Source: Minisyncoccota bacterium
Lineage (GTDB): Bacteria; Patescibacteriota; Minisyncoccia; UBA6257; GWB1-50-10
NCBI GenBank assembly: GCA_040880505.1
Contig: JBBDIH010000034.1
Span: 6,442 to 49,212, forward strand
Direction of reading: 5' to 3'
DNA: 42,771 bases
Of the stretch, positions 9,690 to 13,294 are shown in pieces (positions within the stretch are counted from its first letter, which is position 1; every line of letters begins with the position of its first letter). The notes under the pieces were generated by a model, which saw only the letters and a list, made by a program, of their open reading frames with translations, was not told where the DNA came from and did not search any database. The position numbers and the translations under genes were made by a program.

Positions 9690-9705
9690 ATCTGTCACAA
9701 TCTTT

Positions 9706-9779
9706 ATTTATGCCCTCGGGAGGCATAAATAAAGGTAATCTTAAGTTAATCCTCATTTATGCCTCCCGAGGGCATAAAT
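9706..9779. repeat. REP-like inverted doublet
   Basis: atttatgccctcgggaggcataaat (9706-9730) and its exact reverse complement atttatgcctcccgagggcataaat (9755-9779), 24-bp spacer; each unit is a 9-bp-stem hairpin. Confidence 0.9.
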
Positions 9780-9808
9780 ATTTGGACTCAGTTTCTTTAG
9801 TAAAAAAC

Positions 9809-9853: not shown

Positions 9854-10363
9854 TTACTCTTTCTCTTCCTTTGACTCGCCAGAGTCTTCAGCGTCTGCCT
9901 TGTCGGCAGACAGATCAGCGGTTTCTTCGTTGTCTTCTTTCTCTTCGTTAACTACTTCTTCAGTAGAGTCTTCTGCAGGAGATTCTACTGGTTTACTTTC
10001 TTCTGTTTCCTTAGATTTTTCTATTTCTGACTCTTTAGAACTCTCAGCTTTAGCAGATTCAGCCTTCTTCTCTGCTTCTATTTCTTCTTCTGACTTCTTT
10101 TTCTTTGAGTGTACCGCCCTCTTCTTCCCTTCAATAACTCCAGCAGAAACTAATAAATTATGAACAGTGTCAGTTGGTTGAGCACCAACGCCTAACCAAT
10201 AATTAGCTCTTTCTTTATTTACCTCAAATTGATCATTGTGTCTGTTTACCCACCCTAAATCCTCAATAAAGCGTCCTTTTAGCTTAGATCGCTTTTTTGT
10301 TACTACAACTCTATATGATATTTGTCCTTTTTTTCCTACTGGTCTTAATTTTATAGCTACCAT
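9854..10363 (-). CDS. rpsP: 30S ribosomal protein S16 with long acidic C-terminal extension
   Basis: MVAIKLRPVGKK.Q.SYRVVV....S...GRFIEDLG, WL.VGAQPTDTV..LL; about 85-aa Lys/Glu-rich tail. Confidence 0.96.
   Translation of the reverse strand: MVAIKLRPVGKKGQISYRVVVTKKRSKLKGRFIEDLGWVNRHNDQFEVNKERANYWLGVGAQPTDTVHNLLVSAGVIEGKKRAVHSKKKKSEEEIEAEKKAESAKAESSKESEIEKSKETEESKPVESPAEDSTEEVVNEEKEDNEETADLSADKADAEDSGESKEEKE
9866..9928 (-). repeat. Intragenic palindromic element, copy 1 (in rpsP tail, encodes EETADLSADKADAEDSGESKE)
   Basis: 53/63 nt identical to 10777-10839 by manual alignment; 21-nt GC-rich hairpin core at 9894-9914. Confidence 0.85.
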
Positions 10364-10404
10364 AGTTAAAGTATTATGTATTAACTTAATTTTAAAATCA
10401 ACCC

Positions 10405-12612
10405 TTATTCATTGATAATCTCTTCAGCTTCTTCAAACTTTAAAGATATTACTTTTGAAACTCCATCATCACCCATTGTTACACCATAAAGCGCTGATAC
10501 AGCCTCCATTGTAACTCTGTTATGAGTAACAATAATAAACTGTGTTTTATGTGAAAACTCTTTTATTAATTCCGAAAATCTCGCTGCATTAGAATCATCC
10601 AACGCTGCATCAATCTCATCTAAAACTAAAAAGGGTGGAGGTGAAACAGATATAAGAGCAAAAAGAGAAGCTAATGAAACTAAAGTTTTTTCACCACCAG
10701 AGAGCATCTCTAAGCTGTTTATTTTCTTCCCAGGTAATTTTATTTCTATGTCAACACCAGCTTTTAATTCTTCATCTTCTTTTGAATCGCCAAAACCTTC
10801 GGCGCCTGCCTTGTCGGCAGACAGGTCAGCGATTTCGTCTTTATCCTTGTTTTTCTTATTTTTAATAGAAAGTTTCATTCTGGCCTTACCCCCACCAAAC
10901 ATTAATCTAAAATAATTATTAAATTCTTTATTTACTAAACTAAAATCTTTTTTAAAGTCATTATGAATTCTCTTTTCTAAATCATTAATTAATTTTTCAA
11001 GATCTTTTGATGCCTTTTGAAGATCTTCTAATTCTCTACTTAAAAATTCATGTCTCTCCTCTATTTCATTCGCTTCAGCTATTAAAGATTTGTCTATATC
11101 TCCAATAGCATTTAATTCTAAGCGAAGCTTATCTATTGTGTTTTCATGTTTTTCCCAATTCTCATTCTTTAAATTTTCTTTATTGTCTACTTTTATATGG
11201 AGTAAATCATCTAATTCAAAACCTAATGAAGTCCATTTATTCTCTAATTCTTTTTTCTTAAAGTCCGTTTTTTCTTTTTCTAAAATCTGATGATCAATAG
11301 ATCTTTCTAACTCCCTAACTTCATTTTTTATTTTTTCCAAATTTTCTACTTGAGTTCTAAATTCTTTGTTTTTTTCTGCCTCTCCGGTTAAAAAATTATT
11401 TTCCTCCTCTCTTAGCTTCTTTAATTCATTGTTTAATTTTTCTATTTTCTCGTTTATTTCTCTAATTCTATTTTTTTCATTAGAAAAAACTTTGTCTTTA
11501 CTCTCTTCTTTTTCTTCTTTAAACAAAGAATCAAACTTATTAATCCAATCTGTTAAAGGTTGTTTTAAGTTGCCTTCACCTGATAAAACATTTCTTATCT
11601 CTTCTACAAAAGATTTTATTAAATTCAAAAGATAAGTAGATGAATGTCCACTTTTCTTTTCTTCCGGCTGAAATTCTATCTTTGCCTCTAGTCTGGCTAA
11701 TTCACGTTCTAAATTAGTCTTGTTCTCATTTATTTTTTCTATTTCTTTTCTTATCTTGTCTAATACTTCGATAGTGTTTTCTTTTTTGTTAATTTTAGAA
11801 ATTATTAAAGAAAGTTCATTGGCTCTTTTCTCTTTCTCTGATTTTTTAGAATTTAAGTTGTTTATTTTTTCTTTGAATAAATCTATTTTTTCTGAAAATA
11901 GATTGTAATGATAAGTAAAATAAGTTTCAGAAAGTTCTTTTAATTTTTCTTCAACAACACTTCTTTTTTCCCATTTATTTTTTTGTTTTCTTAAAAATTT
12001 AAGATGAGGTCTTATTTCTTCTATTTTTGCCTCTACCTTTTCTGCATTTATAGTGCTCCTTCTTAATCTTCTTTCTGCTGTTTTCTTCTTTAAGCGAAAT
12101 TCTTTGAGTCCAAGTATTTCTTCTATCATTAATCTCCTCTCTTCTGGAGACCTAGTAACAAAAACATCGCTTTGACCTTGTCCTATTATAGTTAAACCTC
12201 TAGCTCCTAATCTTGCTTTAGCAAGCATAGGAATTAAGTCTTTTAATCTAACCTCTTCATCATTAACAAAGAATTGACTTGTCCCTGATTTATCTATTCT
12301 TCTAGTCAAATTTATTTCATTCGAATCCACAGGAAAAAGCCCTTTTGAATTATCAAAATTTAAAGTTACTCTAGCTAAACTAGAAGCTCCTCTTTTAGGT
12401 GTTCCTGCAAAAATTAAATTACCAAGAACTTCCCCTCTAAGATTTTTTGCTTCTCTTTCACCCATAGCCCATCTTAGGGCATCTATTATGTTTGATTTTC
12501 CAGAACCATTAGGTCCAACAACTGCAACTACTTTATCGTTTATTTTAAAATCAATCTTTCCAGCAAAAGACTTAAAACCTTGTAATTCTATTCCTTTTAA
12601 AAAGTTACTCAT
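10405..12612 (-). CDS. smc: SMC-family ATPase, short (735 aa), no recognisable hinge domain
   Basis: LQGFKSF, Walker A GPNGSGKSN, Q-loop IIGQG, signature LSGGE, Walker B/D-loop FLVLDEIDAALD, THN; long coiled coils; lies beside rnc as canonical smc does. Confidence 0.88.
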   Translation of the reverse strand: MSNFLKGIELQGFKSFAGKIDFKINDKVVAVVGPNGSGKSNIIDALRWAMGEREAKNLRGEVLGNLIFAGTPKRGASSLARVTLNFDNSKGLFPVDSNEINLTRRIDKSGTSQFFVNDEEVRLKDLIPMLAKARLGARGLTIIGQGQSDVFVTRSPEERRLMIEEILGLKEFRLKKKTAERRLRRSTINAEKVEAKIEEIRPHLKFLRKQKNKWEKRSVVEEKLKELSETYFTYHYNLFSEKIDLFKEKINNLNSKKSEKEKRANELSLIISKINKKENTIEVLDKIRKEIEKINENKTNLERELARLEAKIEFQPEEKKSGHSSTYLLNLIKSFVEEIRNVLSGEGNLKQPLTDWINKFDSLFKEEKEESKDKVFSNEKNRIREINEKIEKLNNELKKLREEENNFLTGEAEKNKEFRTQVENLEKIKNEVRELERSIDHQILEKEKTDFKKKELENKWTSLGFELDDLLHIKVDNKENLKNENWEKHENTIDKLRLELNAIGDIDKSLIAEANEIEERHEFLSRELEDLQKASKDLEKLINDLEKRIHNDFKKDFSLVNKEFNNYFRLMFGGGKARMKLSIKNKKNKDKDEIADLSADKAGAEGFGDSKEDEELKAGVDIEIKLPGKKINSLEMLSGGEKTLVSLASLFALISVSPPPFLVLDEIDAALDDSNAARFSELIKEFSHKTQFIIVTHNRVTMEAVSALYGVTMGDDGVSKVISLKFEEAEEIINE
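10777..10839 (-). repeat. Intragenic palindromic element, copy 2 (in smc head loop, encodes DEIADLSADKAGAEGFGDSKE)
   Basis: Homologous to 9866-9928; core cctgccttgtcggcagacagg at 10805-10825. Confidence 0.85.
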
Positions 12613-13294
12613 TATTAATCTTCTTTAAAGCTTCTTCTGCTGCAACTCTTTCTGCTTCTTGTTTTGATGTTCCAACTCCTTTTGCAGAAAGCTTATCACC
12701 AAAAAATACTCCAACGACAAATTTCTTTTCATGATCAGGTCCATCTTCCTCTAAAATTTTATAGTTAGGAGTTATTTTTTTATTTCCCTGAATAATCTCT
12801 TGAAGAAAACTTTTTGGATCCCTATAAGATTCTTCCTTCATTATTGTTTCTAGGTTAATTAATATAAATTTTTCTATAAATTCTTTTACTTTTTCATAAC
12901 CTTGATCAATATAAATAGCACCGATTATTGCTTCAACCGCATTACCAATAATAACTTCTTTAGCTTTTTCTACTCCATTAGCCTCTCCCTTTGATAATTT
13001 AATGTAATTATCTAAATTAATAGTATTAGCAGTAATAGTAAGCATATTATGGTTTACTAAAGCAGCTCTTATGCTAGTTAACTTACCTTCATCTTTGTCT
13101 TTAAATTTATTAAAAAGAAATTCTGTAACCACTAACTCTAAAACAGCATCACCTAAAAATTCTAGACGCTCATTATTATCTACTGGCCAATTTGGATTTT
13201 CATTTAAATAAGACCTATGAGTTAAGGCCTCTTTTATTAAAAATTTACTATTAAACTCAACTCCTATATTTTTTTCAAATTCATTTATACTCAT
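12605..13294 (-). CDS. rnc: Ribonuclease III
   Basis: ALTHRSY, NERLEFLGDAVL, EAIIGAIY.D, dsRBD DPKS.LQE...G.G.SK..AE..AA. Confidence 0.98.
   Translation of the reverse strand: MSINEFEKNIGVEFNSKFLIKEALTHRSYLNENPNWPVDNNERLEFLGDAVLELVVTEFLFNKFKDKDEGKLTSIRAALVNHNMLTITANTINLDNYIKLSKGEANGVEKAKEVIIGNAVEAIIGAIYIDQGYEKVKEFIEKFILINLETIMKEESYRDPKSFLQEIIQGNKKITPNYKILEEDGPDHEKKFVVGVFFGDKLSAKGVGTSKQEAERVAAEEALKKINNE

Follow-up and report, generated by a model that had tools for sequence, protein, structure and literature searches.

Two adjacent essential genes in a 42,771-nt stretch of the genome of an ultra-small Minisyncoccota bacterium (Paceibacteria) (the window, meaning the whole of that stretch), rpsP and a gene for an SMC-type ATPase, carry a shared in-frame patch that was probably built round a 21-nt palindromic micro-insertion, CCTGTCTGCCGACAAGGCAGG, one of a family of near letter-perfect hairpin modules in many phyla. 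Members of this family are found in spacers, inside other repeats and in frame within genes. Among the explanations weighed below, the one that acts at the level of DNA and assigns no function to the hairpin was the best supported.

A shared patch in two adjacent genes

The two host genes, their patches and the hairpins within them are as follows.

9854..10363, minus strand: rpsP (ribosomal protein S16, 169 aa), an open reading frame (ORF) matching Pfam PF00886 (E = 1.7e-16), with a long acidic C-terminal tail
9866..9928, minus strand: patch copy A, 63 nt, in the S16 tail, read as EETADLSADKADAEDSGESKE and finishing 12 codons ahead of the rpsP stop
9894..9914, minus strand: 21-nt hairpin variant TCTGTCTGCCGACAAGGCAGA in the rpsP patch, with T-A replacing C-G as the outer pair, in a CTGA^CG context
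10405..12612, minus strand: smc-type ATPase gene, 735 aa, of the short Paceibacteria form, matching Pfam PF02463 (E = 1.7e-52)
10777..10839, minus strand: patch copy B, 63 nt, read as DEIADLSADKAGAEGFGDSKE, in the acidic hypervariable loop between FGGGKARMKL and AGVDIEIKLPGKK in the C-terminal head of SMC
10793..10825, minus strand: 33 nt (the hairpin plus CGCCGAAGGTTT) that form a gap in the orthologous smc of two relatives, L008 and L009, in a nucleotide alignment
10805..10825, minus strand: canonical 21-nt hairpin CCTGTCTGCCGACAAGGCAGG in the smc patch, in a CTGA^CG context

An earlier reading of this DNA from its letters alone (the first-pass annotation) had paired the segments at 9866–9928 and 10777–10839, and alignment and translation confirmed that they are identical at 53 of 63 positions, without a gap, and encode ADLSADKA in the same frame. 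The 19-mer CTGCCTTGTCGGCAGACAG is letter-identical in both, and no match to it with three or fewer mismatches was obtained in 100 shuffles of the window. The patches are the most GC-rich spots of the region (46–47% vs ~30%), the window being AT-rich and the genome having a GC content of ~33%, and the GC-rich block common to both genes extends over ~45 nt from CGCTGA to GGCGA. When the two copies were compared, the core contained no differences and the flanks contained all 10 (p = 0.019). The 3' flanks are significantly alike, their level of similarity being reached in none of 5000 shuffles.

The 21-mer is read as LSADKA(G/D) in S16 and SMC. Reading directly from the sequence, it spans seven codons and all six frames are free of stops, and its insertion can therefore never break a reading frame. 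On the mRNA-sense strand, the hairpins fold with −13 to −14 kcal/mol over 29 nt (z = −2.5 to −4.0). The stem has 7–8 bp and two registers are possible; the 7-bp stem with a 7-nt loop that had been proposed at the outset is the only one that suits every variant seen. A gathering-threshold scan of the window against Rfam gave no match at the hairpins. The apical GACAA loop was considered as a recognition motif and rejected, as hairpins with this loop are not in excess over control loops in the assembly.

The source assembly (G000; 1.36 Mb in 315 contigs, 89% complete) was examined using exact, mismatch-tolerant, blastn, nhmmer and six-frame peptide searches. Three copies of the hairpin were found, one more than had been known, and none of the searches recovered a further copy of the patch flanks. 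The flanks were also absent from 400 Patescibacteria genomes and from metagenome matches to the CTGA...CG form of the hairpin. The possibility that the 3' flank is a separate recurrent module was rejected, as its matches were chance-like and in unrelated contexts. The proposal that the mobile unit is an element of ~63 nt was not supported: the recurrent unit is 21 nt and the 63-nt patch is confined to these two genes, which are adjacent and co-oriented, with the patches 911 bp apart. Since the flanks are unique to smc and rpsP, the identity that extends beyond the core is most likely explained by local copying between the two genes. There is a weak hint that the direction of copying was from smc to rpsP, because the smc copy holds the canonical 21-mer, the rpsP copy holding a variant, and because the 5' flank of the smc copy resembles the native smc sequence of relatives (GAAGAAATAATTGA).

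The segments that received the patch were compared with those of homologues. SMC homologues in Paceibacteria have a length of 710–750 aa, and in ~45 of them the segment from FGGGxAxLKL to AGVxIxLxLPxKK comprises 20–50 residues, is acidic and differs in each lineage. The C-terminal tails of S16 homologues vary in both length and sequence. As both segments are hypervariable among homologues, the insert sites are fast-evolving and presumably disordered segments, not conserved short loops. The SMC head loop had been described in the first-pass annotation as normally short, but within this clade the loop is long (20–50 residues) and variable, and ancestrally so.

A third copy inside a tRNA-linked repeat

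The third copy of the hairpin is non-coding and is found in a repeat of 118 nt.

G000:C34:33-53 (L001), strand opposite to the coding copies: third hairpin copy, non-coding, 16 kb distant, reading CCTGTCTACCAACAAGGCAGG
G000:C34:1-140 (L001:1-140), C199:21780-21896, C56:1165-1292 and C221:3191-3300, with L011-L035 in relatives: copies of the 118-nt repeat

Aligned with the smc copy over 27 positions, the third copy agrees at 25, with two G-to-A differences, both of them in the loop. Within the GC-rich 118-nt repeat, it interrupts the apical loop of stem 1, a covarying stem, as an insertion of exactly 21 nt. The 21 nt are missing from the three other copies of the repeat in the assembly and from 15 copies in other genomes of the order, the empty copies reading TTTCCTGACGGAAA and the filled copy TTTCCTGA[21 nt]CGGAAA. 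This exact insertion indicates that the recurrent unit is the 21-nt hairpin. No target duplication was found at the hairpin insertion sites. All three copies are flanked by CTGA^CG, and CTGACG occurs 163 times in the assembly when both strands are counted (6e-5 per site). The three are also clustered, falling within 17 kb of the 1.36-Mb assembly (p ~5e-4). A derivation of the coding flanks from those of the non-coding copy was considered and rejected, as the two are not significantly similar beyond CTGA and CG.

The 118-nt repeat spans several families of the order, and every locus is 30–100 nt past the 3' end of a tRNA, the identity of which varies. Each of the four copies in the assembly is followed by a duplicated 3' fragment of the tRNA concerned, joined at the T-loop, and the repeat looks like the scar or end of a mini-cassette that targets tRNA genes. 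The ends of the repeat are inverted copies of the T-arm of the target. No Rfam match to the repeat was found in an E-value scan. In a sister strain (L206:3700-3730), 16 extra bases (CCCTCCCCTAAAAGAA) are present at a tRNA-Tyr 3'-fragment junction when compared with the end of C275 and the start of C34 in G000, and it is at this junction that the window's assembly splits into two contigs overlapping by 55 nt. The difference of 16 bases is either a strain indel or an assembly collapse.

The smc site is empty in the nearest relatives

The closest homologues were found in two metagenome-assembled genomes (MAGs), GCA_040876995.1 (L008) and GCA_040904085.1 (L009), with 77% identity in the C-terminal part of SMC. 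In G000 the genes rnc, smc and rpsP follow one another head to tail on the minus strand, and the order RNase HII-nusB-rnc-smc-rpsP is common to all three genomes.

12605..13294, minus strand: rnc (RNase III), the upstream neighbour of smc, matching Pfam PF14622, PF00636 and PF00035

At the smc site, GAAATAATTGA is followed directly by TAATATTGAA in L008 and L009, and G000 has GAAATCGCTGA[CCTGTCTGCCGACAAGGCAGGCGCCGAAGGTTT]TGGCGATTC, leaving a clean 33-nt gap. Judged by this alignment, the gap shows that the hairpin entered smc after the split from the nearest sampled relatives. It also upholds the earlier claim that a small palindromic element was placed in frame in a coding sequence and added peptide there. 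The comparison with sister taxa that had been recommended thus yielded an empty site in smc, though no target duplication. The L008 and L009 contigs (L008:4301-4591 and L009:4765-5055) both stop at the same base in codon 97 of rpsP, where the acidic tail begins. This common end suggests that repeated or strain-variable sequence in the S16 tail breaks assemblies. The sister strain GCA_040904155.1 is much closer to G000, with eight differences in 2.8 kb (0.3% divergence).

The same 21-mer in other phyla

One genome per species was scanned with the pattern CTGYCTRCCRACAAGGCAG (19 nt, eight allowed variants), giving at least 124 matches at no fewer than 120 loci. Among the matches listed, the hosts include Bacteroidota, Ignavibacteria, Saccharibacteria, Paceibacterota and Omnitrophota, amongst others, and the flanks are unrelated; cultured Bacteroidota hosts are Arenibacter, Maribacter, Croceitalea, Eudoraea and Algoriphagus. 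No Nostocaceae genome is among the matches listed by name. A single one of the eight allowed variants accounts for 92 of the 124 matches listed, and the exact 21-mer for 76 of them, that is, at least 76 occurrences where ~0.3 would be expected for any one 21-mer in this amount of DNA. The consensus across phyla is R-CCTGTCTGCCGACAAGGCAGG-C. Because the 21-mer is letter-identical in many phyla and its flanks are unrelated, it behaves like a tiny piece of inserted DNA that is probably selfish.

The host loci among the matches listed have a median GC content of 38%, and ~45% of these matches fall in open frames 150 or more codons in length. Within the long open frames, LSADKA is the frame most often used (33 of 56 among the matches listed), with other frames and the antisense strand also represented. 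A few matches are coding coincidences, namely the LSTDKA of CapD-type enzymes and the NLSADKA of methyltransferases. The CTGA context is mostly missing from the copies listed in other phyla. The outer pair of the stem is C..G in 99 of the 124 matches listed and T..A in only one. The first-pass annotation had taken the difference in outer pair between smc and rpsP to be compensatory, and the change from C-G to T-A does keep the pairing; however, it is a single case with one T..A counterpart among the matches listed, and it could stem from GC-to-AT mutation pressure (rough estimate, p ~0.06).

Two further surveys gave the distribution more detail. In 400 evenly sampled Patescibacteria genomes the hairpin was found in ~25 (~6%), with one or two copies each. 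A search of 2.9 million viral contigs, which serves as a rough negative control, gave four chance-like matches and no canonical copy, and carriage by phages was rejected on this basis.

An exact 21-nt indel was also found elsewhere, among the repeats of one protein. In a kinase-WD40 ORF of 1364 codons (L112, MAG contig CAVVMW010000021.1), LS(A/V)DKAG, for which the 21-mer codes, is found at the same position in six of 14 WD40 repeats. The six repeats with the insert, between ...ASG and RELLTL, are 49 aa long and the eight without it are 42 aa long, an exact difference of 21 nt; either repeat homogenisation or repeated hits on one site spread it through the protein. When metagenomes were scanned for the CTGA...CG form, it was found nested centrally in a second, related 21-nt hairpin (CCTGCCTGA^CGGCAAGGCAGG), and GH43-like and Lgt proteins contain the translated double hairpin as LPDLSADKAGGKAG. 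The form was also found in a different outer hairpin, or translated in another protein without a complete outer hairpin.

Candidate enzymes and neighbouring elements

Minimal GIY-YIG nuclease genes of the Ssn-like type were found close to the hairpin at a few loci. A GIY-YIG gene lies within 400 nt of the hairpin at three of the ~120 loci listed, where ~0.1 would be expected, so the association is an enriched small minority. At L093 the hairpin is 38 nt from a GIY-YIG ORF and splits a tRNA T-loop fragment; at L150 there is a copy on either side of the GIY-YIG gene, one of them decayed; and at L104 a GIY-YIG gene is near one copy. A variant of the hairpin is located in a tRNA D-loop at L083, with a GIY-YIG gene alongside, and another (CCGGCAAGG loop) interrupts a tRNA D-loop at L173.

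The sole minimal GIY-YIG gene of G000 (C221:2817-3062, PF01541, 81 aa, single-domain) is found between two tRNA-Gln sequence copies (C221:2650-3140). Upstream is a tRNA-Gln 5' fragment with its D-loop interrupted by three tandem 38-nt hairpins, CCCGCCTCGCGTCGACAAGCAACGCGAGTCGAGGCGGG; on the downstream side, an intact tRNA-Gln precedes one of the 118-nt repeats and a duplicated tRNA 3' end. The hairpins that adjoin this gene are other than the 21-mer. A link between the hairpin and minimal GIY-YIG (Ssn-like) nuclease cassettes is thus weakly indicated, and we regard it as a lead rather than a finding.

An associated HUH/Y1 transposase, which the first-pass annotation had advised looking for, was not found. 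Three PF01797 matches are present in the assembly, an IS200-like copy on C68, a RAYT-like (REP-associated tyrosine transposase, where REP is repetitive extragenic palindromic) ORF on C119 and a third match on C162, and the hairpins at these matches are unrelated or absent. The IS200-like copy (G000:C68:1-600) encodes a 146-aa Y1 transposase and has the end hairpins CTGCACTTTTAGTGCAG and CTGTACTTTAAGTGCAG; its contig is 1.3 kb long with a slightly higher GC content and may be a contaminant. The RAYT-like ORF (253 aa) is flanked by the other palindrome family of G000, TTTATGCCTCCCGAGGGCATAAA, and this second family and the Y1 ORF on C119 may constitute a true REP/RAYT system.

Window 9700-9785: second palindrome family (TTTATGCCCTCGGGAGGCATAAA, frequently in inverted doublets), unrelated to the hairpin, just downstream of rpsP
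L002:6486-6584: second palindrome family, further site
G000:C221:3411-3450: second palindrome family, further site
G000:C119:5130-5180: second palindrome family, further site

Comparison with known palindromic repeats

A literature search found no paper with the exact hairpin sequence and none on in-frame palindromes in the candidate phyla radiation (CPR). The element is closest to the known intragenic palindromic repeats: it parallels Rickettsia palindromic elements (RPE) and intragenic REP sequences in behaviour, and the small dispersed repeats (SDR) of cyanobacteria in size and nesting.

SDR1-8 of Nostocaceae, reportedly described by Elhai et al. in 2008, are said to be palindromes of ~21–27 nt that form exact insertions in other repeats, with no target duplication and no known enzyme, and to be abundant in heterocystous cyanobacteria. 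The hairpin studied here is similar in having a unit of ~21 nt, in being inserted exactly within the 118-nt repeat and within a second 21-nt hairpin, and in the lack of target duplication. It differs in being low-copy, in occurring in many phyla and in being often in genes, and it is set beside the SDRs by description only.

RPEs are ~100–150 bp long, add a conserved peptide of ~30–50 aa, reach tens of copies per genome and form genus-specific families (Ogata et al. 2000, as summarised in PMC10969869). The likeness is that both are palindromic, apparently selfish DNA found in frame in unrelated housekeeping genes of a reduced genome, with the extra peptide in tolerant surface regions. By contrast, the unit here is 21 nt (the local patch 63 nt), there are three copies in G000 rather than tens, and the 21-mer recurs across phyla and not in genus-specific families.

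REP sequences are GC-rich stem-loops of 20–40 nt, some of them in coding regions, that are tagged with GTAG or CGTC; mobilisation in the form of a single-stranded hairpin has been proposed for them (Di Nocera et al. 2013, PMC3733652). The 21-mer is likewise a small GC-rich stem-loop that is sometimes intragenic. However, neither tag is part of its consensus R-CCTGTCTGCCGACAAGGCAGG-C, and the rpsP copy has CGTC only because of a private G-to-A change; REPs are high-copy and mostly extragenic, whereas here there are three copies, two of them genic; and the RAYT-like gene of G000 is flanked by the other palindrome family.

Ssn-related motifs (NTS/dRS3) are hairpin repeats of 20–50 nt bound as single-stranded DNA by single-domain GIY-YIG nucleases of the SsnA type, in a hairpin-gene-hairpin layout (Chenal et al. 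2025, PMC11893778). The nuclease was shown to limit transformation and is not an insertion enzyme (PMC11893778). The present hairpin, or close variants of it, flanks minimal GIY-YIG genes at a few loci (L093, L150 and L083), and the one GIY-YIG gene of G000 is in a tRNA cassette beside the repeat family that hosts the third copy; the difference is that most copies of the hairpin have no GIY-YIG gene nearby. The Ssn-related motif HGTCWYN(0-2)YYVSBRHN(0-5)WNVSBRGN(0-2)RNCYNB was tried on both strands of the three copies and did not match. With elements derived from IS200/IS605, the hairpin shares a hairpin-based structure and may share insertion directly 3' of a short fixed sequence (CTGA^ in G000) with no target duplication. 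It differs in that the IS200-like copy on C68 has unrelated end hairpins and the CTGA context is not general in other phyla.

Alternative explanations

The mobile unit could instead be a larger composite of ~45–63 nt that was inserted independently in smc and in rpsP. The ~45-nt GC-rich block from CGCTGA to GGCGA in both genes and the smc gap of 33 nt, larger than the 21-nt core, are consistent with this, and nested two-module composites occur elsewhere. With the assembly at 89% completeness, a donor might have escaped detection. We consider a composite rather unlikely, as its flanks have no third copy in G000 and none in 400 genomes of the phylum, the candidate flank matches are chance-like and the sole other copy in G000 has the 21-mer alone. 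The first-pass annotation had also raised an mRNA-level signal, which would be selected in the rnc-smc-rpsP transcript as, for example, an RNase III site or another processing or stability site. The adjacency of rnc, the invariant core beside differing flanks (p = 0.019), the preserved outer pair and the longer nested stem of the smc copy (−24.6 kcal/mol, z = −3) all fit such a signal. No link between RNase III and the hairpin was found. RNase III substrates require roughly two helical turns, and a stem of 7–8 bp is far below that length. Moreover, the 21-mer is found in spacers and in genes of unrelated function, on both strands relative to ORFs and in many phyla, is missing from the orthologous smc of the nearest relatives, and has a non-coding copy in a tRNA-linked repeat outside the operon, which makes a transcript-specific signal very improbable.

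A one-off local duplication or gene conversion between neighbours, with the resemblance of the core elsewhere a coincidence, would account for coding copies that are adjacent and co-oriented and share flanks unique to the pair. The third copy, with its unrelated flanks, and the distribution across phyla, with at least 76 exact copies against ~0.3 expected and exact 21-nt indels in both the 118-nt repeat family and the WD40 repeats, leave it largely refuted; we give it very little credence. The corresponding scenario in the first-pass annotation, in which only two copies exist and sister taxa share the loops ancestrally, failed, as there is a third copy and sister taxa lack the smc insert, although the local copying of the patch that it envisaged is likely. 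Finally, LSADKA(G) might be a selected short linear motif acquired convergently, and both coding copies in G000 do use the LSADKA frame, the commonest frame in long open frames (33 of 56 among the matches listed). The identity, however, is at the nucleotide level and includes synonymous sites, about half of the copies listed lie between genes, the antisense strand and frames other than LSADKA are used as well, and some LSADKA/LSTDKA matches have nothing to do with the hairpin, being ordinary motifs conserved in enzymes. Convergence on a peptide is the explanation that we find hardest to credit.

Several observations count against insertion of a mobile 21-nt hairpin. No enzyme is tied to the hairpin in G000, most copies are without a nearby GIY-YIG gene (only three of the ~120 loci listed have one within 400 nt), and proximity to tRNA genes does not extend across phyla, with an intact tRNA gene within 500 nt of none of the 124 copies listed. 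The smc gap is 33 nt rather than 21, the exact boundary of the insert being blurred by divergence of the loop, and rpsP lacks an empty-site comparison since the L008 and L009 contigs break off at codon 97. The sister strain GCA_040904155.1 keeps all three copies unchanged and thus shows no presence/absence polymorphism. With one to three copies per genome, the hairpin is unlike classical proliferating repeats. The counts from the species-genome scan, which had no shuffled control of its own, are to be read as lower bounds.

A model for insertion and spread

For the lineage of G000, the comparisons show that the hairpin entered after the split from the nearest sampled relatives and that its three copies all occupy CTGA^CG sites within 17 kb. 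We infer that a patch of ~55–65 nt with the hairpin in it was then copied between smc and rpsP by ectopic gene conversion or template switching, possibly from smc to rpsP. As the inserting agent, the best lead is a single-strand nuclease specific for hairpins, of the minimal GIY-YIG (Ssn-like) type, which would be located on cassettes that target tRNA genes. Read as LSADKA(G/D), the hairpin would be tolerated in disordered, acidic, hypervariable segments, and no function need be assumed for it.

A broader proposal can be put forward only tentatively, and we hold it to be possible but doubtful. In it, CCTGTCTGCCGACAAGGCAGG is one of a class of 20–21-nt mobile modules across phyla, the smallest mobile units known, that would be written site-specifically (in G000 at CTGA^CG, with single-stranded hairpin loops as the usual target) by a hairpin-recognising minimal GIY-YIG/Ssn-type nuclease system on tRNA-targeting cassettes. 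Being seven codons long and stop-free in every frame, the 21-mer would be a general source of new loop sequence for essential proteins.

If hairpins of 21 nt do move, the lower size limit of mobile DNA would be far below that of miniature inverted-repeat transposable elements (MITEs) and REPs, and any account of how they spread would have to do without terminal repeats and without a linked transposase. That the letters are conserved so exactly from phylum to phylum implies either that horizontal transfer is frequent or that a conserved enzyme recognises the sequence. Inserts of this kind inflate the apparent divergence of proteins and may also break metagenome assemblies. They would, if mobile, be a direct source of new peptide loops in the essential proteins of genome-reduced bacteria.

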